DNA from: Chthoniobacterales bacterium
GTDB lineage: Bacteria > Verrucomicrobiota > Verrucomicrobiia > Chthoniobacterales > JAATET01
Direction: 5' to 3'
Length of the DNA stretch: 64,000 bases
Assembly (NCBI GenBank): GCA_036569045.1
Contig: DATCRI010000087.1
Location: 381-64,380, forward strand
The position numbers and the translations under genes are program-made. Below are positions 42,354 through 61,945 of this stretch, in pieces; position 1 is the first letter of the stretch, and each line of letters opens with the position of its first letter. The notes beneath the pieces were generated by a model. That model did not search any database, was not told where the DNA came from, and was given only the letters and a program-made list of their open reading frames with translations.

Positions 42354-43697
42354 CTAATTCCAGAGCCTGTCCAGCCCCCGGCGCGTGCAATCGAACAATT
42401 CGTCAATCTCCGCCCGCGTAATGATGAGCGGCGGCGCGAAAGCCACGAGGTCGCGGATGCCGCGAACGATCGCCCCCTCGGCGCGAACAAGGTCCGCGGC
42501 CTTGATTCCCAATCCCAGTCCGGCGCCGATCGCCTCGCGCCCCTCGCGGGGCAAAAGCTCCGCCGCGCCGATCAAGTGGTCGCCTCGCACTTCGCCGACA
42601 GCTGGATGCGTCGCGAGCTCCGCGAGCTTTTGCTGGAAGTAGGGGCCGACATCATCGCGCACCCGTTCGACCAGGCCGAGATCCTCGATCACCCGCACGT
42701 TTGCGAGCCCCGCCGCCGCGCAGGTCGGGTGGCCGGTGTAGGTGTAGCCGTGCGCGAAATAGCCGCCGGTGTTGATGACCTCGGCAATCTCGTCGCTCAC
42801 GAGCGTCGCGCCGAGCGGAAGATAACCGCTCGTCAGGCCCTTCGCGACGTTCAGCAGATCGGGCTCGAGTCCCTCGCGCTCGCTGGCAAACCAGCATCCG
42901 AGCCGGCCAAACGCCGTGATCACCTCGTCCGCCACGAAGAGAATGTCCCGCTCGCGGCAAAGCTGCCGGAGCGCCTGGAGATAGCCCGGCGGCGGCACGA
43001 TCACGCCGCCCGCGCCCTGGATCGGCTCGACGAACATCGCCGCGATCGTGTCCGCGCCCTCGCGGTCGATAATCTCCGCCGTGCGCGCCACGACGTCCGC
43101 GCCATACGCCTCCGTGGCCTCCGCGCGGTCGTTCCACCCATACGGCGCCGGGATTTTCACGAAATTCTCCAGCGGCAGATCGAAGGGATCCACGCAGCTC
43201 GGCAGCCCGGTCAGACTCGTCGCCGCCAGCGTCACGCCATGGTAGGCGAACTCGCGGGAGAGAATCTTGCGTTTTGTCGGCTTACTCCGGAGCTTCCAAT
43301 ACCCGCGGATGATCTTGAGCGCCGTCTCGTTCGACTCGGAGCCCGAGTTCGAATAAATCACGCGGTTCAGCCGCGCAGGCGCGTGTTTCGCCAGCCATTC
43401 GGCGAGGAGGACGGGCGGCTCGGTCGTGGAATTGAAAAACGACGGGTAATAGGGCAGCGCCTCCATTTGCGCATGCACGGCCTGGACGATCGCGGCGCAA
43501 TTGTAACCGACATTCACGCACCACAGTCCCGCAAGGCCATCGAGCAACCGACGGTCCTCCTCATCGACCAGATAACAGCCGTCCCCCCGCTTGATCCACC
43601 GCGTCCCCTCGCGATGCATATCCGCATGATTTGTAAATGGGTGAATGTGATGGTCGCGGTCTTTTTGGCGCAATTCCTGCAATGTCGGATGACCCAT
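42354..43697 (-). CDS. class-III (omega) aminotransferase, PLP-dependent
   Basis: ATG at 43697 gives MGHPTLQELRQKDRDHHIHPFTNH.... Motifs: GLAGLWCVNVGYN, SNSGSESNETALK, PIQGAGGVIVPP, ILFVADEVITAFGRLG, and KGLTSGYLPLGA with the Lys. The upstream part of the track ORF was discarded. Confidence 0.85.
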   Translation of the reverse strand: MGHPTLQELRQKDRDHHIHPFTNHADMHREGTRWIKRGDGCYLVDEEDRRLLDGLAGLWCVNVGYNCAAIVQAVHAQMEALPYYPSFFNSTTEPPVLLAEWLAKHAPARLNRVIYSNSGSESNETALKIIRGYWKLRSKPTKRKILSREFAYHGVTLAATSLTGLPSCVDPFDLPLENFVKIPAPYGWNDRAEATEAYGADVVARTAEIIDREGADTIAAMFVEPIQGAGGVIVPPPGYLQALRQLCRERDILFVADEVITAFGRLGCWFASEREGLEPDLLNVAKGLTSGYLPLGATLVSDEIAEVINTGGYFAHGYTYTGHPTCAAAGLANVRVIEDLGLVERVRDDVGPYFQQKLAELATHPAVGEVRGDHLIGAAELLPREGREAIGAGLGLGIKAADLVRAEGAIVRGIRDLVAFAPPLIITRAEIDELFDCTRRGLDRLWN

Positions 43698-43880
43698 GCC
43701 CAAAACTATCACGTGGCCAAAGGGAATGCCAGCCAGCGGGCGACAGTTGCTGGCCAGTTGCCGGAACTCGCTGAACCGGCGCGGGTTGGAGGCTCCGCAG
43801 TCGGGTTTTGCGCTTGACCTCAACAGGGGTTTTGGATTGTTTCGCCGCGTTTTGAATGAGGGGAAATTCTGACCGGTTCG

Positions 43881-45383
43881 ATGGAAGCGGTTTTTAACAA
43901 CTACGTCTGGAGCGTCAGCTATTTGCTGGTGTTGATCGGTTTGTCGGCTTACGGAATTCACCGCTGGTCGATCATCCATCTATTCCTCAAGCACATCCGC
44001 AAGGACGTGCAGCCCGCCGGGCATTTCGACGATCTGCCGACGGTCACCGTCCAGCTCCCCCTCTACAACGAATATTACGTTATCCGGCGGTTGCTCAACG
44101 CCGTGGCGAAGCTCGATTACCCCCACGACAAGCTCCAGATTCAGGTCCTTGACGATTCGACGGACGAAACCCGCGCTGTCGCGGAAGCCGAGTGCGATCG
44201 TCTCCGCGCCACCGGCCTCGACATCGTCCACATCCACCGGACGGACCGCACCGGTTTCAAGGCCGGCGCCCTCGAAAACGGCCTCATCACCGCCAAGGGC
44301 GACTTCATTTTCATTCTCGACGCGGATTTCGTCCCGCAACCGGACGTGCTCAAGCAGTCCATCCACTACTTCACCGACGAGAAGATCGGCATGGTGCAGA
44401 TGCGCTGGGGCCACATCAATCGCAACGATTCGCTCCTCACCCGCATCCAGGCCATGTTCCTCGACGGCCACCTGCTTCTGGAGCAAACCGCCCGCTGCCG
44501 CAGCGGCCGCTTCTTCAATTTCAACGGCACCGCCGGCATCTGGCGCCGCCAGGCCATCGACGACGCTGGCGGCTGGCACCACGACACGCTCACCGAGGAT
44601 CTCGATCTCAGCTACCGCTCGCAGCTCGCCGGCTGGAAATTCGAATTCCTGCCGAACATCATCATCCCGGCCGAGTTGCCGCCGGACATGAACGGCTTCA
44701 AGAGCCAGCAGCACCGCTGGACGAAGGGCTCCATCCAGACCTGCAAGAAGATGCTCAGCACGATCTGGGCGGCAAAGATTCCGTTCATCCTCAAGGTCGA
44801 GGCCACGATGCACCTCACGTCGAACTTCGGCTACCTGCTCCTCGCGCTCCTCTGCGTGCTCATGCTCCCGCAGACGATGTCGAACCATCACAGCAGCGGC
44901 ATGTGGCGCACCTGGCTGATCGATCTGCCGATCTTCTTCGCCACCACCGTCTCGATCGCCACGTTCTACATCTGCGCCCAGCGGCACCTGAATCCAAAGG
45001 GCTGGATGCGCGACATGCTCTACCTCCCGATGCTCCTCTCGCTCGCGATCGGCATGTCGGTGAACAACGCCAAGGCCGTGCTCGAAGCCCTCATCAATCA
45101 CCAGACCGGCTTCACCCGCACTCCGAAATACGGTTCCACCGTCACCCCGCGCGCCACGAAACGCCGCGCCTACCTTCCGATGAAATCCCTCCTTCCGATC
45201 ATCGAGATGCTCTTCGCCCTCTATTTTGCCTACTGCACCTCGAAGGCCCTGCTCGCCGGGGAATTCACCTCCGTGCCGTTCCTGCTCCTCTTCTTCGTGG
45301 GCTTTTCCTACGTCGCTGGCAAATCCGCCATCGCCTGGCTGCCCTCGTTCGCCCCGCCCTCCGCCACCCCGGCCACCGCCTAG
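43881..45383 (+). CDS. processive family-2 glycosyltransferase (CslA/CslC-like beta-glycan synthase type)
   Basis: N-terminal TM helix. TVQLPLYNE. VLDDSTDET. ILDADF. TEDLDLSYR. QQHRWTKG (QxxRW). Then 4-5 C-terminal TM helices. Confidence 0.85.
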   Translation: MEAVFNNYVWSVSYLLVLIGLSAYGIHRWSIIHLFLKHIRKDVQPAGHFDDLPTVTVQLPLYNEYYVIRRLLNAVAKLDYPHDKLQIQVLDDSTDETRAVAEAECDRLRATGLDIVHIHRTDRTGFKAGALENGLITAKGDFIFILDADFVPQPDVLKQSIHYFTDEKIGMVQMRWGHINRNDSLLTRIQAMFLDGHLLLEQTARCRSGRFFNFNGTAGIWRRQAIDDAGGWHHDTLTEDLDLSYRSQLAGWKFEFLPNIIIPAELPPDMNGFKSQQHRWTKGSIQTCKKMLSTIWAAKIPFILKVEATMHLTSNFGYLLLALLCVLMLPQTMSNHHSSGMWRTWLIDLPIFFATTVSIATFYICAQRHLNPKGWMRDMLYLPMLLSLAIGMSVNNAKAVLEALINHQTGFTRTPKYGSTVTPRATKRRAYLPMKSLLPIIEMLFALYFAYCTSKALLAGEFTSVPFLLLFFVGFSYVAGKSAIAWLPSFAPPSATPATA

Positions 45384-46763
45384 GTGGACGCCCGTTGGAC
45401 GCCGCGCGAGCGGCTCTTTTTCTGGGGACTGTTCGCGGCCGGGATCGCGTGGAATGTCTTCGCGCTGCTCCTCTCGGCCGGGTGGAGCCTCGATGACGAA
45501 CTCTCCCACTACCTGCGCTCCCGCAGCGTCTGGGAAAATCCCGCCCTCATCTTCGATGCGTGGACGCGGATCGGCCGCAACCTCTTCCATGTTCTCCCCG
45601 CGCCCTTCGGCCTCACCGCCACGCGTCTCTGGACCCTCGCCTTCGCCGCACTCTCGGTCCTGTTGACCACCCGGCTCGCCGCCCGGCTCGAGGCTCCCCG
45701 CACCTGGCTCATCCCGCTCCTTCTCTGTTTCCAGCCGTGGTTCGTCGAGCTCTCTTGGGGCGTCCTCACCCAGCTCCCGTTCCTGCTTCTGCTCATTGGC
45801 GGCGTGCTCGGGCTTTCCGCGAACCGCCTCATCCTCTCCGGTCTCTGTTTCGGGGCGCTTCCGCTCGTCCGTCACGAAGGCATCGCCCTCACCGCGCTCT
45901 GGGGCGTCCTCGTCGCCGGCCGCACGCTGCTCGTTTCGCCTCGCGCCTTCCTCCGCCCCCTCGCTGCCGTCGTCTTCTCGACCGCGCCCATGGCCGCCTA
46001 CAATCTCGCCGCCTGGCTCGCCCTCGGCGAATTGCCCTCACGCCTCCTTCTCTCCGCCAAGCCCACCGAAATCTACGGCCACGGCCCCCTCTGGCACTTC
46101 ATCCCCATCTCCATCCTTCCCGCCGGCGTCTTCACCCTCGCCCTGCTCGCGGTTGGAACGCCCGCCCTTCTGCGCCAATGGCGCGCCACCTGGACGCTCC
46201 TCTTTTTCCCCGCCTACTTCGGCCTCCACACCCTCATCTACTGGCAGGGCCTCTTCGCATCCGGCGGTTACTACCACTTCCTCATGCCCATGGCGCCCGG
46301 CCTTGCCGTCGGCGCTCTCTTCGGCGCAAACGCCCTCCTCGACCGCCCCGATCGAAAATCTCGCCGCGTCGCAATCGGCCTTCTCGTCGGCGCCGTCGTC
46401 CAGGGCCTGCTCCTCGTTCATCTCTGGCGCGACGGCCGGCCGCACCTCACCGTTATCCGCGATCCGATCGTTCACGCCATCGATGAAGCCTTCACCTGGC
46501 AAAAGCAGAACCGTCCCCACGCCACGGTCGTCTGCCACCACATCTACGCCGCCTGGCGCGAAGACTGGATCGAGACGCCCGCTCGCCGGCAGCTCGACAA
46601 CACCCCGCCCCCGCAGCTCCCCGGCGGCACAATCGTCCTCTGGGACGAGAAATACGCCGACCTCACCGGCCTTCCCCTTGCCACCCTGCAGGCAGATCCC
46701 GCCTGGCAGCCCGTCGCCAGCTTCGGCAACGGCTCCGTCCAGATTTTCGAAAAAGTTCACTGA
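45384..46763 (+). CDS. polytopic GT-C / PMT_2-like glycosyltransferase-fold membrane protein
   Basis: GTG start immediately after the GT2 stop. About 11 TM helices. Acidic first-loop motif WSLDDELSHYLRS, as in ArnT/PMT-type lipid-linked-sugar transferases. Soluble C-terminal domain. Confidence 0.6.
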   Translation: MDARWTPRERLFFWGLFAAGIAWNVFALLLSAGWSLDDELSHYLRSRSVWENPALIFDAWTRIGRNLFHVLPAPFGLTATRLWTLAFAALSVLLTTRLAARLEAPRTWLIPLLLCFQPWFVELSWGVLTQLPFLLLLIGGVLGLSANRLILSGLCFGALPLVRHEGIALTALWGVLVAGRTLLVSPRAFLRPLAAVVFSTAPMAAYNLAAWLALGELPSRLLLSAKPTEIYGHGPLWHFIPISILPAGVFTLALLAVGTPALLRQWRATWTLLFFPAYFGLHTLIYWQGLFASGGYYHFLMPMAPGLAVGALFGANALLDRPDRKSRRVAIGLLVGAVVQGLLLVHLWRDGRPHLTVIRDPIVHAIDEAFTWQKQNRPHATVVCHHIYAAWREDWIETPARRQLDNTPPPQLPGGTIVLWDEKYADLTGLPLATLQADPAWQPVASFGNGSVQIFEKVH

Positions 46764-46804
46764 TTGATTCGCGCCGCCGGACCGCTGCGCTATCGTTCCT
46801 CCCC

Positions 46805-47335
46805 ATGAATTTTCGGATCGCCCTGCCTCTGCTCGCCGCCCTCCTCCTTCTCGGCGGCTGCGCGGAGGACAAGCGCCACGTCATCATCATCAATGTCCCT
46901 GCCCAGCAGATGACCGTGCTCGACGAAGGCCGCCCCATCGCCACCTACCCGGTCTCCACCTCGAAATTCGGCGTCGGCGACCGCCCCGGCAGCAACTGCA
47001 CCCCCCTCGGCACCTTCAAGATTCGCAAAAAAATCGGCGCCGACGCCCCGTCGGGCATGAAGTTCAAGGACCGCCGACCCACCGGCGATATCGTGGCCGT
47101 CGACGCGCCCGGTCGCGACCCCATCGTCACGCGCATCCTCTGGCTCGACGGCCTCGAGCCCGGGAATCGAAACGCCTACTCCCGCCACATCTACATCCAC
47201 GGCACTCCCGAGGAGCGTAACATCGGCATTCCGGCCAGCTTCGGCTGCATTCGCATGCGCTCGCGCGACGTCATCGCCCTGTTCGACACCGTCGGCGTCG
47301 GCGCCCGCGTGAAAGTCGTGACTGGCGGCTTGTGA
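46805..47335 (+). CDS. L,D-transpeptidase (YkuD domain) lipoprotein
   Basis: Lipobox MNFRIALPLLAALLLLGGC. YkuD catalytic motif HIYIHGTPEERNIGIPASFGCIRMRSRDV. Confidence 0.88.
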   Translation: MNFRIALPLLAALLLLGGCAEDKRHVIIINVPAQQMTVLDEGRPIATYPVSTSKFGVGDRPGSNCTPLGTFKIRKKIGADAPSGMKFKDRRPTGDIVAVDAPGRDPIVTRILWLDGLEPGNRNAYSRHIYIHGTPEERNIGIPASFGCIRMRSRDVIALFDTVGVGARVKVVTGGL

Positions 47336-47417
47336 AGAAACCGCGAAAGACGCACTCTTGAACGCCACCACGGCCGAATCCCTTCGTTCCTAGTTTCAGA
47401 TACCAATCACCGTTTTC

Positions 47418-49322
47418 ATGGGTTCTTCCAATCCCCTGCCCCGCTGGCTCTCCACGATTCTCTGGGGAAATTCCGTCGCTCTCTCCTGGATGTGGGGCCT
47501 TGGACTGTTCTTCTCGGTCCAGTTCACCACGCAGTTCGGCCTTTTCGGCCTCCTTGCCTTCGCGATTCCGAACTTCATCGGCCTCATGGCCTTCGGCCTC
47601 GTCACCCAGCAAATCGCCAACCGCCAGAAAAACAAGGGATCCGAGGCTCTCGCGCAGTTCTTCGTCGCCTGGTCGCGACCGTTCCGGCTGGTTTTCTTCC
47701 TCTACCAGATCCTCGCCCTCTCGCTCACGATCTTCGCGATCATGCGCTACGTCGTGATGCCGCTGCAGCTCCCGCTTGCGTTCCTCTACCTCCCGCTCGC
47801 CCTTCTCGTCATCCTCGCCGCGGCCGTCCTCTTCGGTGAGGAGTTCAACATCAAACGCATCAAGTTCAGCCACGGCGCGCTCTTCCTCGTGCTCCTCGCC
47901 GCGCTTGGCATCATCTTCAGCTCACTCGGAAAATTCGGCGCCGTCTCCACGGTGGAATGGACCCCGCAGCCCACGGGCAGCTGGAGCTTCTGGGGCTACT
48001 TCGTGCCGATCTTCATCGGCTTCCTCGTGGGCCCGTGGCTCGATCTCCAGCAATGGCAGCGCGCCATCCAGATGCACCGCGAGCGCGTCTCGGTCGGCTG
48101 GGGCTACGTCTTCGGCAGCCTGCAATTCTTCGCGCTCCTCCTCGTGCACGGCGGCCTCACGCTCTGGGCGCTCGGGCTCGGCGGCAAGGAGCTCTTCCAC
48201 ACCGGCGTCGAGGGCTTCACCTACGGCCACGACATGCTGCTCAAGTTTTTCTATGCCAGCATCGACGTCCATCCCGTCGTCTTCTCGGCCTACTGCGTTT
48301 TCATCGCCATCTGCATCCTCACCACGCTCGACAGCGGCTATATCGCCATCCGCTGGTTCCTCCAGTCGAACGTGAACACCAGCAACGCCGCCATCCTCTC
48401 GCTCATTCCGGCGAAACTCATCACCTCGCCGATCCCCGCTCTCCTGCTCTGCGGCGTCATCGCGCTCGTCTGCACCGTCGTCGGGCTCGACCTCGAGTAT
48501 TTCATGATCTTCTTCGCAACGTTCCTCGTCGGCTACGAGGTGCTCGGCGTCGCCCGCTGCTACGTCTACAGCCCGGCGAACGCGATCCCACAGATCAAGA
48601 TGTTCTGCATCGGCTCGGTGGCCGTCGTCATCTTCGCCTTCGGCTATCTCCAGTCGCTGCCCGGGCTCCAGATCATCGGCTCGCTGCTCCCGCTCGGCTA
48701 CGTCTTCTGGCTCCTCATCAAACCGACCTCGGCCGAGGAATTTGTGTCGAACACCGAGGAGCTCGAGTCTCCCTCGCAATCCGGCGCCGTGCTTCCCGCC
48801 TCCGCTCCCGCCGCGCCCGTGGCCACGTCCCTCCCCGCCGCGATCTCCTCTGCCGTGCAACATCCCGTCGCCGCCGCCGCCGCCGCGCTCGGCATTCACG
48901 ACCTCACCGGACACTTCGAGGACAAGTGGTTCGTCCATTCGTTCGTCGCGACCTACGCGGACACCAACTCCGTCGGCAACGTCTACTTCGGCATGTATGC
49001 CATGTGGGTCGGCAAGACGCGCGAGCTGTTCTTCAACAAGGTCATGCCGAAGTTCAACCTCAAGGACACGCCGTTCTACATCCTCACGCGGTCCTTCGAG
49101 CACAAGTTCGTCCGCGAGACCCGCGAGTTCGAGACCGTGAAGGTGAAAATCAAGATCGCCGGCTTCAACCGGAAGTTCGTCACGCTCGCCCACGAAATCT
49201 ACGACTCGCACGAGCAACTTCTCGGCAAGGGCCAGCAAAGTCTGCTCTTCGTTTCCTCGACCGATTACCACATGCTCGACATCCCGCCCGATGTCCATGC
49301 GGCCTTCATTGTGCACGCCTGA
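47418..49322 (+). CDS. fusion protein: about 12-TM transporter-like domain + C-terminal 4HBT/hotdog acyl-CoA thioesterase domain
   Basis: Residues 1 to about 430 form many hydrophobic helices. An Ala/Pro-rich linker follows (LPASAPAAPVATSLPAAISSAV). The last 130 aa or so, FVHSFVATYADTNSVGNVYFGMYAMWVGKTRELFF...FVTLAHEIYD...LLGKGQQSLLFV, resemble YbgC/4HBT thioesterases. Confidence 0.65.
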   Translation: MGSSNPLPRWLSTILWGNSVALSWMWGLGLFFSVQFTTQFGLFGLLAFAIPNFIGLMAFGLVTQQIANRQKNKGSEALAQFFVAWSRPFRLVFFLYQILALSLTIFAIMRYVVMPLQLPLAFLYLPLALLVILAAAVLFGEEFNIKRIKFSHGALFLVLLAALGIIFSSLGKFGAVSTVEWTPQPTGSWSFWGYFVPIFIGFLVGPWLDLQQWQRAIQMHRERVSVGWGYVFGSLQFFALLLVHGGLTLWALGLGGKELFHTGVEGFTYGHDMLLKFFYASIDVHPVVFSAYCVFIAICILTTLDSGYIAIRWFLQSNVNTSNAAILSLIPAKLITSPIPALLLCGVIALVCTVVGLDLEYFMIFFATFLVGYEVLGVARCYVYSPANAIPQIKMFCIGSVAVVIFAFGYLQSLPGLQIIGSLLPLGYVFWLLIKPTSAEEFVSNTEELESPSQSGAVLPASAPAAPVATSLPAAISSAVQHPVAAAAAALGIHDLTGHFEDKWFVHSFVATYADTNSVGNVYFGMYAMWVGKTRELFFNKVMPKFNLKDTPFYILTRSFEHKFVRETREFETVKVKIKIAGFNRKFVTLAHEIYDSHEQLLGKGQQSLLFVSSTDYHMLDIPPDVHAAFIVHA

Positions 49323-49329
49323 TCGATCG

Positions 49330-50742
49330 ATGACGGCCCGGCGGAAATTCCCCCGCGATCGCGCCCTCCTCATCGGCCTCGCCGGCGTATCGCTGGCCCT
49401 CGCCGGCTGCGAAAAGCCGGTGCCGCCGCCCCCACCGACGCCGACGCCCGCCCCCTCGGTCACTCCGCGTCCCACCGCGACGCCGCGACCCTCCCCCACC
49501 GCGACGCCGGTTCCCGTGATCGACCGCAAGCGGCTGAGCGTCTCCGAGCTGTTCAACGACATCCAGGTCGTCAGCGAAATCGACGCCGTCCGCAGCCCGG
49601 AAACCGCTTCGCAGGACCGCACCCAGCCCGGCAGCTACGGCCTTCACCTCACCCTCAAGGTCGACGTCCCCGCCCCCAGCCACACGCTCGAGCAGATCAC
49701 CCGCAACGACGCCACGCTGCCCGCGGCCCTGCCCGGCCTCGCGGCCCTGCTCTCCGACGCAAAAACCTCCGCCGCCTTCGAGCAGCTCTACGCCCTCAAG
49801 CTCGACTATCTCAAAGCCCGCCTCTCGCGGCTCGACACCCTGCTCGACCGCCACAACTTCTACGATTGCGAGACCATCCTCGAACTCCGCAATCCCGCCA
49901 CCGGCCGCCGCGCGCTCTTCCTCCAGGGCGACATGGACGTGAATACCGATGGCTCCGACGGCGACCGCAATTTCCCCGTCGAGCCCGGCTCCGTTTTCTT
50001 CCAGCCCCAGACCAGCTACCGCTGGAAGCGCCAGACCGACCGGCCCAACCCCTTTCTCGCTCCCACCCAGGCAAGGCTCGCAATCAACCGCGCCGAACTC
50101 GCCAAAAATCCCGCCCCCGCCCGCCGCGCCGTCCTCCGCGACGCCATCGAGCGCGACACCGCCATCATCTACGAGCTGCAGCGCTACAGCTTCCTCATCG
50201 CGGGCAACGACCCCTACATTGTGCTCCCCGGCTTCATGGTCCGCAATGCCACCGGCCCCTTCGCCCCGGCCATCGGCGACTACGCTGCCGTCGTGCATGG
50301 CGGCATCGTCTACCCCGCCATTCTTGGCGATGTCGGCCCCTCCTTCAAATTCGGCGAGGCCGCCATCCGGCTCTGCCAGCAGATCAACCCCCGCTCCACC
50401 GCCAACTCGCGCCCGGTAAGCAGCCTCAAAGTCACCTACCTCGTCTTCCCTGGCACGAAGGAAGCCGCGGCCGGACCCCCGGATCTCGCCAAATGGCGCG
50501 CCCGCTGCGAGGAGCTCTTCAAGGATCTCGGACTCCAGCCGAGTCAGATCCACTCCTGGGAAAGCCTCATCCAGCCTTGGCCGACCCCGACGCCAACTCC
50601 CACACCCACGCCGTCTCCCTCGCCGAGCCCGACCGCCAGCCCGTCTCCAGACTCCTCACCCAGCGCGACCCCGTCGCCGAGCGCGTCGCCCTCGCCGACC
50701 ATCCCGCCATCTCCATCCCCCTCTCCGGCAACGACCCCGTAA
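49330..50742 (+). CDS. lipoprotein with GH75 (chitosanase-like) motifs and Pro/Thr/Ser-rich N- and C-terminal tails
   Basis: ATG at 49330 gives MTARRKFPRDRALLIGLAGVSLALAGC (lipobox). LFLQGDMDVNTDGSDGDRNF and AAVVHGGIVYPAILGDVGPSFKFGEAAIRLCQQI resemble the DMD.DCDG and GD.GP..IGEASI motifs of glycoside hydrolase family 75. The tail is PTPTPTPTPTPSPSPSPTASPSP.... Confidence 0.5.
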   Translation: MTARRKFPRDRALLIGLAGVSLALAGCEKPVPPPPPTPTPAPSVTPRPTATPRPSPTATPVPVIDRKRLSVSELFNDIQVVSEIDAVRSPETASQDRTQPGSYGLHLTLKVDVPAPSHTLEQITRNDATLPAALPGLAALLSDAKTSAAFEQLYALKLDYLKARLSRLDTLLDRHNFYDCETILELRNPATGRRALFLQGDMDVNTDGSDGDRNFPVEPGSVFFQPQTSYRWKRQTDRPNPFLAPTQARLAINRAELAKNPAPARRAVLRDAIERDTAIIYELQRYSFLIAGNDPYIVLPGFMVRNATGPFAPAIGDYAAVVHGGIVYPAILGDVGPSFKFGEAAIRLCQQINPRSTANSRPVSSLKVTYLVFPGTKEAAAGPPDLAKWRARCEELFKDLGLQPSQIHSWESLIQPWPTPTPTPTPTPSPSPSPTASPSPDSSPSATPSPSASPSPTIPPSPSPSPATTP

Positions 50743-59363: not shown

Positions 59364-60197
59364 CTAAACCCGACGACGACGGGAGTTCAGAAAAAGCGCA
59401 CCGATTCCCAAAGCAGCCAACGCAATCATTCCCGGCTCCGGAACCGCACTCACGTCAGCAAAGCTGGTAGAAACAACCAGACCGTCGATTGCCGTCGTGC
59501 CGATCCCACTCGCTTGTCGTAGCAGGATATTTCCCATTGTCGTTATGCCTCCAGGAACCGAGGTCTCGCCATCGACAGTGGTTGAAAAAACAGCCGCTAC
59601 CGAATCGGTCACTGACGAACTGCCTTCACCAGTTGGATTAATCCACAACGTGGAGGTCATCGTCGTAAAATCGAATTTCACGACAATTCGAACTGTCGTG
59701 TTCAAATCAAACTCCGCACCGGAATAAACGACCGCGTTTCCACTGTCGTTGATGATTCCTAACTTGAATTTCGTAGAGGTGGAACCTTGGGCGATTTGCA
59801 AGCGACCGAAATAGTCATTCGCGGCCCCCGTTTCACCGTCCCAAAGTGTGGCGAAATAACTTCCGTTCGCGCTGGGGGCAGCAGTAACCGTGGCTGTGAG
59901 GCCATAATACAAAGATCCGCTACTAACCGGAGTAAACGCCCGTGCATCATCTTGCGAATTCGCAAAAGTCGTGATTGCCCTACCAGACGATACATTCAAA
60001 GGCGTGCTGCCGCTATTGAGAACCCATGCTCCTCCCGAAACCGTTAAAAGATCGCCATCCGCATAATCAAAATATTCCGAAAGCAATGGGGCCGCAGAAG
60101 CGCCACTCATGACGGAAAAACACAGCGCTCCCATGGAAAGGAGCGAAACGAATGGCTTACGAACAAGCGATTTGGAAGTGGGCAGCGGATTTTTCAT
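59364..60197 (-). CDS. PEP-CTERM sorting-domain protein (LamG/jelly-roll-like ectodomain)
   Basis: ATG at 60197 gives the signal peptide MKNPLPTSKSLVRKPFVSLLSMGALCFSVMSGASA. The C-terminus VPEPGMIALAALGIGALFLNSRRRRV is a textbook PEP-CTERM anchor. The gene is visibly more A/T-rich than its neighbours. Confidence 0.85.
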   Translation of the reverse strand: MKNPLPTSKSLVRKPFVSLLSMGALCFSVMSGASAAPLLSEYFDYADGDLLTVSGGAWVLNSGSTPLNVSSGRAITTFANSQDDARAFTPVSSGSLYYGLTATVTAAPSANGSYFATLWDGETGAANDYFGRLQIAQGSTSTKFKLGIINDSGNAVVYSGAEFDLNTTVRIVVKFDFTTMTSTLWINPTGEGSSSVTDSVAAVFSTTVDGETSVPGGITTMGNILLRQASGIGTTAIDGLVVSTSFADVSAVPEPGMIALAALGIGALFLNSRRRRV

Positions 60198-60448
60198 TGG
60201 GAATGGAAACAAGGGCAGCACTTTTGCCATTTGAATAAACACGGTCCGTCGGCAGCCCGAGGAACATTCAAATTGCGACAATTATGCCATCGTCTGTTGC
60301 GAGCCACTCTCAGCAGCCACCGTGCCTGAAATGCCATAGCCCTTCACAAGGGCACGTTATTCCCAAATTTTTTCAGAAATTACGCCGATTTACTTCCGAA
60401 CAAAGATTATCACACGGAGAGCCTCCTCGCTCCCTGCCTGAGCGGGCG

Positions 60449-61447
60449 TCAAATCAGCTCCGCAATCTGCACGGCGTTGAGCGCGGCGCCTTTGAGGAGC
60501 TGGTCGCCGCAGACCCAGAAGGTCAGGCCGTTTTCCATCGCGCAATCGAGGCGCAGGCGACCGACTTCGCAGTCGTCCTTGCCGGCGACTTCGAGCGGCA
60601 CGGGATACTTGCGATCCGCTGGCACGTCGACGACCCGGATGCCGGGAAATGCGTCGATGGCCTTGCGCGCGGCGGCTACGCTGGCGGGACGCTCGAACTC
60701 GGCGCTCACCGCCACGGAATGCGCCCGGTAAACCGGCACGCGCACGCAGGTCACCGAGGCGCGGAACATCGGCAGGTGCATGATGCGCCGGCCTTCGTTC
60801 TGCATCTTCATCTCTTCCTTCGTGTAGCCGGAGTCGAGGAACGAGTCGACCTGCGGGATGACGTTGAAGGCGATCTGATGGGAGAAAACCTCGGGCTTCG
60901 TCGCGACGCCGGCGGCGATATCGTTCACCTGCTGGCGCAGTTCTTCCACGGCCTGGGCACCGGCGCCGGACACGGCCTGGTAGCTGGACGCGAAGACGCG
61001 CTTCACCCGGAACTTCTGATGCAGCGGGTAGAGCGCCATGAGCGTGATGGCGGTCGTGCAGTTCGGATTCGCGATAATCCCCTCGTGATGCTTCACGTCG
61101 GCGCCGTTGATCTCGGGCACGACGAGCGGAACATTGTCGTCCATGCGGAAGGCGGACGAATTGTCGACCACCACGGCCCCGGCCTTCACGGCGATCGGGG
61201 CATATTCCTTCGAGATGCCGCCGCCCGCGCTGAAGAGCGCGATGTCGACGCCGGCAAACGAATCGGGCCCGAGCGCTTGCACGGGGACGTCTTCGCCGCG
61301 GAATGGCAGGGTTTTGCCCGCGGAACGGGGCGAAGCGAGCAGGGTGAGCTTGCCGACGGGGAATTTGCGACGCGCGAGCACGTCGAGCATTTCCACTCCC
61401 ACCGCGCCGGTTGCCCCGACGATCGCCACATGATACTGCCTGCTCAT
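60449..61447 (-). CDS. asd: aspartate-semialdehyde dehydrogenase
   Basis: ATG at 61447 gives MSRQYHVAIVGATGAVGVEMLDVL. Active-site region IIANPNCTTAITLMAL. SYQAVSGAG. The C-terminus QLLKGAALNAVQIAELI is typical of Asd. Confidence 0.93.
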   Translation of the reverse strand: MSRQYHVAIVGATGAVGVEMLDVLARRKFPVGKLTLLASPRSAGKTLPFRGEDVPVQALGPDSFAGVDIALFSAGGGISKEYAPIAVKAGAVVVDNSSAFRMDDNVPLVVPEINGADVKHHEGIIANPNCTTAITLMALYPLHQKFRVKRVFASSYQAVSGAGAQAVEELRQQVNDIAAGVATKPEVFSHQIAFNVIPQVDSFLDSGYTKEEMKMQNEGRRIMHLPMFRASVTCVRVPVYRAHSVAVSAEFERPASVAAARKAIDAFPGIRVVDVPADRKYPVPLEVAGKDDCEVGRLRLDCAMENGLTFWVCGDQLLKGAALNAVQIAELI

Positions 61448-61462
61448 AAAATAAAGAGGGTT

Positions 61463-61945
61463 ATGTCTATCGCAGATTCCGCTTCGGGCCAATCGGCATT
61501 TTCCATTCGGGTGAGCGTGCCGGAGCAACGGCTCGACCTGCTCGAGGACGAAACCATCGTGGCAACCTATCCCGTCTCAACCTCGAAATACGGGCTCGGC
61601 TCCGAGCCGGGAAGCTACCGGACGCCCACGGGCCAATTCGTCATCGGAGAGATGATCGGCGGCGATGCGCCGGCGTGGACGGCGTTCAAAGGGCGACAGC
61701 CGGTCGGGATTTTTTCCGCCACGGATGACGACGAGGACGGCATCCTTTCCCGCATCCTCTGGCTCAGCGGACTCGAGCCGCAGAATGCGAACACGCGCGA
61801 CCGCTACGTCTACATCCACGGGACGAACCAGGAGGCACTGATCGGCACGCCCGCGAGCCACGGATGCGTGCGGATGCGGAACGCCGACGTGATCGACCTC
61901 TACGGCCGGGTGCGCCCCGGGACGCCGGTGCACATTCTCGCCTGA
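61463..61945 (+). CDS. L,D-transpeptidase (YkuD domain), no recognisable signal peptide
   Basis: ATG at 61463, in frame within the over-long track ORF 60284-61945. YVYIHGTNQEALIGTPASHGCVRMRNADV catalytic motif. It is a clear paralogue of 46805-47335 (shared ATYPVSTSK.G.G..PGS..TP.G.F and ILWL.GLEP.N.N). Confidence 0.85.
   Translation: MSIADSASGQSAFSIRVSVPEQRLDLLEDETIVATYPVSTSKYGLGSEPGSYRTPTGQFVIGEMIGGDAPAWTAFKGRQPVGIFSATDDDEDGILSRILWLSGLEPQNANTRDRYVYIHGTNQEALIGTPASHGCVRMRNADVIDLYGRVRPGTPVHILA

Follow-up and report, generated by a model that had tools for sequence, protein, structure and literature searches.

A conserved pair of glycosyltransferase and YkuD genes forms the core of a composite envelope locus in a Chthoniobacterales bacterium

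We analysed a 64,000-nt stretch of DNA from a Chthoniobacterales bacterium (contig DATCRI010000087.1), hereafter the window, and all coordinates of its features are positions in it. Five co-directional genes on the + strand encode a large membrane-integrated family-2 glycosyltransferase (GT2big), a polytopic protein modelled as a GT-C-fold glycosyltransferase, an exported YkuD-domain lipoprotein, a membrane protein fused to a hotdog thioesterase and a GH75-family lipoprotein. An initial annotation, made from the sequence, had read the five genes as one functional module. The gene context in relatives did not support this. The unit that is deeply conserved across Chthoniobacterales is, very probably, the pair of GT2big and YkuD, and the locus is composite. 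The GT-C gene is an accessory insertion, while the thioesterase fusion and the GH75 gene lie outside the core.

The linkage of the genes in related genomes carries this conclusion. A metagenome scan with GT2big gave 80 loci at 59-89% identity, and linkage was counted in those with at least 700 nt downstream. In these metagenomic Chthoniobacterales loci a YkuD gene follows GT2big without exception (68/68). This number consists of 64 loci counted by script, two with GT-C between the genes (L082 and L094) and two in which the genes overlap (L084 and L099). The flanks of the pair vary by locus and include rpoBC/tsf, RNR, PDH, a histidine kinase and others. In L002 and L166 the two genes overlap by 4 nt. 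In contrast, GT-C accompanies GT2big in 8 of the 80 loci, and more than 60 loci have GT2big and YkuD, with or without GT-C, in the absence of both the thioesterase fusion and GH75. L084 and L166 carry the order GT2big-YkuD-thioesterase-GH75-suhB without GT-C, which shows that GT-C was inserted into an arrangement that already existed. Conservation of the gene neighbourhood, which had been proposed as a check of the module, was therefore found for GT2big-YkuD, whereas the five-gene set occurs mostly in relatives that share the flanks as well. Our literature search found no system of a GT2 with an L,D-transpeptidase, and we know of no description of the GT2-YkuD pairing.

GT2big (43881..45383, +; 500 aa), the core of the cassette, is cellulose-synthase-like. 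It matches the GT2 families of Pfam with 94 bits, and Glyco_transf_21 was also matched. The exact sequence is found at NCBI as HEY8901824.1, 'cellulose synthase family protein [Chthoniobacterales bacterium]'. The D, D, D, QxxRW signature reported in the initial annotation is present, and all quoted motifs were found: LDDSTDE (44148-44168), LDADF (44316-44330), TEDLDLS (44592-44612) and QQHRW (44706-44720). They are invariant in 6 orthologues. The same is true of FTRTPKYG (aa 411-418; 45111-45134), which is placed between C-terminal hydrophobic segments. The cytosolic gating loop of BcsA has the sequence FxVTxK, and the FxRTPK part of the GT2big motif resembles it, by motif only. By hydropathy, a single hydrophobic segment lies at the N-terminus and at least four lie toward the C-terminus.

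The best NCBIfam matches of GT2big are PgaC/IcaA and CelA, far under the equivalog cut-offs (CelA 116 vs 699 bits, PgaC 119 vs 422, and likewise NodC 65 vs 550). In a search against the PDB its best solved relatives were BcsA (1e-17) and PcManGT (6yv7; 5e-15), a minimal cellulose-synthase-like mannosyltransferase. Ceramide glucosyltransferase was a weaker match (1.6e-6), and dolichol-phosphate mannose synthase (DPMS), ArnC and GtrB gave no match at E<=0.001. The enzyme had been called processive, which is plausible but unproven. Literature searches on a bacterial CslA-like mannan synthase and on a connection with cyanobacterial MgdA gave nothing usable.

The invariant partner of GT2big is a lipoprotein of 176 aa (46805..47335, +). 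Its description as a YkuD lipoprotein was borne out by the Pfam YkuD match (87.5 bits vs a cut-off of 23.4) and by the lipobox LLGGC (46847-46861). The catalytic motif IHGTP...SFGCIRM, with the His at 47195-47209 and the Cys, within GCxR, at 47237-47257, is invariant in 80 YkuD orthologues. All orthologues, across clades, have a lipobox or a type-I signal peptide. Among the NCBIfam models the L,D-carboxypeptidase ElsL scored highest, with 116 bits vs a cut-off of 270. ElsL of Acinetobacter is a leaderless cytoplasmic L,D-carboxypeptidase (PMC8649774). We rejected an identity with ElsL because of the export signals in all orthologues. As judged from its sequence, the protein is an exported ElsL-like YkuD enzyme. 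It is predicted to act as a transpeptidase or a carboxypeptidase, two activities which the sequence does not separate.

The window has a second YkuD gene (60284-61945, +; 553 aa). Its C-terminal YkuD domain (aa 408-551) is 50% identical to the YkuD protein of the cassette. The approximately 400 aa before the domain have no Pfam match, and the start may be over-extended. Just upstream of it lies an open reading frame (ORF) of 305 aa (59364-60281, -) whose C-terminus carries a PEP-CTERM sorting motif (Pfam E=4e-5).

The GT-C gene (45384..46763, +; 459 aa) begins with a GTG that abuts the stop codon of GT2big. Searches of Pfam, NCBIfam and PDB sequences with the protein gave no match, and it reached no curated hidden Markov model (HMM) of a named GT-C family (PMT_2, GT87, DUF2079 and others). 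DUF2079 was matched weakly in 2 of 34 homologues. Because no HMM matched, the assignment rests on the fold. The AlphaFold (AF2) model, built from an alignment of 34 sequences, is a confident one (pLDDT 92.5, pTM 0.91). In Foldseek its top 30 matches were all GT-C enzymes or GT-C-like, with a probability of 1.0 and a TM-score of about 0.6, and they included ALG12, ArnT, ALG9, PglB, OST STT3, AftB, PMT and Emb. The acidic first-loop motif noted earlier, LDDELSHY (45489-45512), is present and conserved: all 34 homologues have D38 and E39, and at least 90% of them have D37. Thus, of the earlier label GT-C/PMT_2-like, the GT-C fold is supported by the model, whereas neither PMT_2 nor any other HMM was matched. 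The GC and GC3 content of the gene gives no compositional sign of a foreign origin.

GT-C is found in two positions relative to YkuD, in the metagenome loci counted above and in Terrimicrobiaceae genome loci. A relative 70% identical to the window GT-C shares the entire neighbourhood including the flanks, so it is not independent evidence. The Terrimicrobiaceae loci, with GT-C proteins 57-59% identical, contain only GT2big, YkuD and GT-C, in another order, in three unrelated neighbourhoods and with 4-nt overlaps. A different partner was observed in about 40 Verrucomicrobiales loci, where a GT-C relative of 33-40% identity directly follows a small GT2 of about 246 aa. A GtrA-family gene is directly upstream in 19 of these loci and a few kb off in 7 more. 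The best matches of the small GT2 are DPMS, ArnC, GtrB, AglJ and PpgS. The order GtrA - small GT2 - GT-C is the classical arrangement of a polyprenyl-phosphate-sugar synthase, a flippase and a GT-C enzyme.

Other settings of GT-C were also seen. A few loci of FCB type have it inside Wzx/GT4 polysaccharide clusters. In L047, L056, L057 and L064 (Chitinivibrionales, Fibrobacterota, Calditrichia) it ends a conserved block of a Wzx-like flippase, a 517-aa protein and a GT4-like glycosyltransferase, neighbours that were named by sequence inspection. GtrA - small GT2 - GT-C is found twice, with identical scores, near both ends of a 3.6-Mb contig of Rubritalea spongiae (NZ_JBHSJM010000001.1; L031 and L065). 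The two copies may result from overlapping ends in the assembly of a circular chromosome instead of a real duplication.

More distant relatives of GT2big give hints to the kind of product. The family comprises 1798 clusters of 50% identity at E<1e-30, whose top representatives share 40-50% identity along their whole length, and it extends to Acidobacteriota (Mesoterricola, where the gene is alone) and Planctomycetota. Domain fusions were read from relatives that are 40-47% identical. In P0366 a GH113 domain is followed by the GT2. Since this domain sits between an N-terminal membrane anchor and the first transmembrane segment of the GT2, it is predicted to face the periplasm. GH113 is a family of beta-mannanases. 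P0246 gave a weak GH5-like match, below the cut-off. In P0364 the GT2 is followed by a lipoprotein-like segment with PG_binding_1, in the position held by YkuD in the window. A single 1147-aa protein, P0343 (L163 6001-9444), joins a GT2big-like domain, a GT-C domain (GT87/MptA_B) and a small Dpm1-like GT2.

We read P0343 as a probable 'Rosetta stone' for a synthase combined with a periplasmic branch-adding system. The hhalign comparison of the window GT-C profile with the GT87/MptA_B domain of P0343 was negative, and therefore the fusion is analogous, not orthologous. Taken together, the fusions independently mirror three associations of the window and its relatives: with a glycan-acting hydrolase, with peptidoglycan, and with a GT-C plus a lipid-phosphate-sugar synthase. 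They favour a periplasm-directed beta-glycan over a glycolipid, and a mannan-type chain is our best guess. The fusions, P0343 among them, also speak against GT2big as the donor synthase of GT-C.

Other fusions were noted in P0243, P0250, P0267, P0222 and P0246/P0384 (Pirellulales-like). Planctomycete relatives of the GT2 are parts of giant proteins, which reach about 2,270 aa and contain long leucine-rich-repeat regions. Further relatives have FG-GAP/beta-propeller, CarboxypepD_reg or cytochrome c domains.

The remaining two genes are neighbours outside the core. The thioesterase fusion (47418..49322, +; 634 aa, alternative start 47490) has about 12 hydrophobic segments by hydropathy and a C-terminal hotdog domain from about 48909, as the initial annotation had described (Pfam 4HBT_2, 30.7 vs 25.5 bits). 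A profile search of the PDB found the hotdog thioesterases 5vpj, DynE7 and CalE7. The AF2 model of the fusion is poor (pLDDT 55). Its Foldseek matches are uniformly LeuT/APC-fold transporters, and we tentatively assign the membrane domain to this fold. The fusion has 1112 homologues at 63-85% identity. In two other Chthoniobacterales loci (L004 and L005) it lies beside alaS/PqiAB or cyd (cytochrome bd) genes.

The GH75 protein (49330..50742, +; 470 aa, alternative start 49291) was correctly recognised as a GH75-like lipoprotein (Pfam Glyco_hydro_75, 38.9 vs 27 bits). It has the lipobox LALAGC (49393-49410) and Pro/Thr/Ser-rich linkers, the tails of the earlier description. It aligns to the chitosanase V-Csn (7tvm) at 1e-6, and the equivalents of the catalytic D148 and E157 are conserved, together with their spacing, in GDVGPSFKFGE (50326-50358). 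A bacterial GH75 lipoprotein had been called unusual. This is not the case, since the protein has 1479 homologues, several of which NCBI already names 'glycoside hydrolase family 75 protein', and it is common in this order. Nor does GH75 seem to be the matching hydrolase of the synthase, as had been proposed: the distant GT2 relatives instead fuse GH113 and, in the weak sub-cut-off case, a GH5-like domain. In L167, where neither GT2 nor YkuD is present, the GH75 gene comes directly after the thioesterase fusion among ribosomal-protein and LptFG genes, and the two genes may be a functional pair of their own. They are adjacent, 2-48 nt apart, in two independent contexts (window 47418-50742; L167 6073-9374; L166 6118-9335) and separate in L004 and L005.

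The ORF list agrees with the earlier description of five ORFs with gaps of 0, 41, 82 and 7 nt. The gene suhB starts 48 nt past 50742 and is followed by ispF, cysS and more housekeeping genes on the same strand and with tight spacing. Because the same-strand run extends into these genes, spacing alone cannot delimit a five-gene unit. A divergent class-III aminotransferase gene lies upstream of GT2big. Its listed ORF (42354-43979, -; 541 aa) is probably over-extended at the 5' end, as orthologues have 419-446 aa and the Pfam match begins at aa 127. The true intergenic region before GT2big is therefore wider than it appears. A consensus scan for promoters and terminators performed no better on the window than on shuffles as a guide to the operon structure. 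Scans of the whole window for tRNA, tmRNA and Rfam families gave nothing at threshold. The closest relatives of all five genes are in Terrimicrobiaceae/Chthoniobacterales metagenome-assembled genomes, which places the organism in the order Chthoniobacterales of the Verrucomicrobiota.

The analysis shows what the genes encode, with their folds, catalytic motifs and export signals, and how they are linked. On this basis we propose the following picture, for which we see an even chance of being right: a core GT2-YkuD cassette for a wall-associated glycan, a GT-C insertion and a second cassette. GT2big would use a nucleotide sugar at the cytoplasmic side to polymerise a beta-linked hexose chain, which would pass through the enzyme's own transmembrane part into the periplasm. 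A chain of beta-1,4-mannan or glucomannan type is our best guess for the product. YkuD would act on the stem peptides of peptidoglycan at the site where the chain emerges, by trimming tetra- to tripeptides, by forming 3-3 cross-links or by tethering something to the wall. GT-C, inserted into the cassette in the window genome and in a minority of Terrimicrobiaceae, would have its acidic active-site loop facing the periplasm. Its most likely role would be to decorate the emerging glycan with side-chain sugars, taken from a polyprenyl-phosphate sugar whose synthesis is encoded at another place in the genome. The thioesterase fusion and GH75 make up a second, loosely conserved pair, which adjoins the core in this sub-lineage alone. 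The polymer, the processivity, the acceptor of GT-C and the substrate of YkuD are the predicted parts of this picture.

Several points weigh against it. The mannan-type guess draws on the one GH113 fusion and the one sub-threshold GH5 match, and the product and the roles of GT2big, YkuD and GT-C are predictions. QxxRW is also present in non-processive lipid glycosyltransferases, e.g. ceramide glucosyltransferase. The 64 kb of the window contain no small GT2 or GtrA gene to feed GT-C. The contexts of three distant GT2 relatives (Mesoterricola P0234, P0343 and P0366) have no adjacent YkuD, so the GT2-YkuD pairing may be lineage-specific. Moreover, GT2-YkuD-thioesterase-GH75 is tightly packed in the sub-lineage of the window, down to about 60% identity, and co-transcription and a functional link between the two pairs are conceivable.

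A different reading of the locus, in line with the initial annotation, makes all five genes a single operon that encodes the pathway to a glycan which is acylated, attached to peptidoglycan or both, with GH75 as the matching hydrolase and the thioesterase supplying or removing acyl groups. It has on its side the tight co-directional packing and the synteny of the five genes, or of four without GT-C, in L006, L082, L094, L084, L166 and the P0005 contig. However, the syntenic relatives other than L166 and L084 also share the flanking housekeeping genes, which means that the synteny is largely inherited. The thioesterase fusion beside alaS/PqiAB or cyd genes, GH75 and the thioesterase without GT2 in L167, the more than 60 loci that lack both, the continuation of the run into suhB/ispF/cysS and the GH113/GH5-type hydrolases of the fusions all speak against it, and we consider a single pathway unlikely. 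The product could also be a glycolipid. GT2big would then be a single-addition glycosyltransferase acting on diacylglycerol, ceramide or a hopanoid, and its adjacency to YkuD would reflect co-regulated envelope housekeeping. The very large size of the family and its conservation across phyla fit this reading, as do the usually solitary relatives and the matches to Pfam Glyco_transf_21, ceramide glucosyltransferase and HpnI. Still, FxRTPK would, by its motif, correspond to the BcsA gating loop, PgaC, CelA and BcsA are the best matches, the periplasmic GH113 and GH5-like fusions are sensible only with a glycan product, and the linkage in 68/68 loci with 4-nt overlaps points beyond chance. We regard a glycolipid product as rather unlikely.

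The Verrucomicrobiales loci raise the question whether GT2big replaces a GtrB-like enzyme, since a small DPMS/GtrB-like GT2 precedes GT-C there and GT2big has that position in Terrimicrobiaceae. In such a system GT2big would make, and perhaps flip, a polyprenyl-phosphate sugar, which GT-C would transfer to lipopolysaccharide, protein or peptidoglycan. This is highly improbable. The small GT2 has DPMS/ArnC/GtrB similarity, whereas GT2big has none at the threshold given above; most GT2big-YkuD loci have no GT-C; and P0343 has a small GT2 in addition to its GT2big-like domain. We rejected GT2big as a lipid-phosphate-sugar synthase for GT-C as unlikely on the missing matches and the P0343 fusion. 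The role of YkuD can be taken further than in our picture. Lpp and outer-membrane proteins are joined to peptidoglycan by L,D-transpeptidases, and the enzyme might covalently link the meso-diaminopimelate of peptidoglycan with the GT2 product or with a protein that binds this product, which would result in a Gram-negative wall glycopolymer. The strict pairing with GT2big, the export of YkuD with its catalytic motif intact and the PG_binding_1 fusion at the equivalent position in P0364 are consistent with this. On the other hand, a neutral hexose polymer offers no amine acceptor, the cassette includes no deacetylase or aminoacyl/ethanolamine transferase, and the YkuD domain is most similar to the carboxypeptidase ElsL (PMC8649774). 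Covalent anchoring by YkuD is thus very unlikely in our judgement.

All five protein families are of known kinds, and databases name four of them generically. Compared with the membrane-integrated processive GT2 synthases, i.e. bacterial BcsA (with BcsZ) and the plant mannan/glucan synthases CslA/CslC, GT2big has the same GT-A D, DxD, TED and QxxRW motifs and the N-terminal and several C-terminal transmembrane segments, and BcsA is its best solved relative. It also carries a motif that resembles FxVTxK, and a likeness to plant CslA is a possible lead. The partnership of BcsA with the glycosidase BcsZ is paralleled by the glycosidase fusions of GT2big relatives. Unlike BcsA, GT2big has no PilZ domain and no periplasmic or outer-membrane partners of the BcsB/BcsC type, and its partner is a YkuD enzyme. 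Another cellulose-synthase-like GT2 with gene neighbours that act on the wall or on the product belongs to the CslA-GlxA-CslZ/LpmP tip glycan system of Streptomyces. There the partners are a radical copper oxidase, a GH6 enzyme and a lytic polysaccharide monooxygenase; the host is Gram-positive and the partners are not homologous to those in the window.

The window GT-C shares its fold and the acidic first periplasmic loop with the three-component systems (GtrA/GtrB/GtrC; CsbB/GtcA/YfhO; ArnC/ArnT; Ppm1 with MptA/B). In contrast to these, GtrA and a small GT2 are absent from the window and GT-C is embedded in a synthase-YkuD cassette. GH75 chitosanases, fungal or from the soil virus (V-Csn), share with the window protein the GH75 domain and the catalytic Asp/Glu with their spacing. 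The window GH75 differs from these in that it is a lipoprotein, has about 180 additional aa at the N-terminus and contains Pro/Thr/Ser-rich linkers. Its C-terminal half alone aligns to V-Csn, and it pairs with a transporter::thioesterase gene. The YkuD protein has the catalytic domain of E. coli LdtA-E and ElsL, with the invariant His and GCxR. It differs from these enzymes in its genetic tie to a GT2, and both LysM and PG_binding domains are absent. In contrast to the leaderless, cytoplasmic ElsL (PMC8649774), it is an exported enzyme with a lipobox or signal peptide.

To our knowledge, it has not been described before that a cellulose-synthase-like GT2 and an exported YkuD enzyme are strictly paired throughout an order of soil bacteria that are very abundant but poorly cultured. 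Members of the Chthoniobacterales rank among the most abundant Verrucomicrobiota of soil. The corrected boundaries of the module matter for planned deletions or heterologous expression. If the pairing reflects a shared pathway, it would point to an uncharacterised wall-associated glycan in Verrucomicrobiota and to a new task for enzymes of the L,D-transpeptidase family. A bolder version, which we hold to be distinctly unlikely, is that Chthoniobacterales build an unrecognised periplasmic wall glycopolymer. GT2big would extrude a beta-mannan-type chain, its obligate partner YkuD would covalently couple the chain or its carrier to stem peptides or create the tripeptide sites needed for this, and GT-C-dependent branches would be added in some lineages. 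Such a polymer, if it exists, would be a Gram-negative equivalent of wall polymers of the teichoic-acid kind, with an L,D-transpeptidase as the attaching enzyme.

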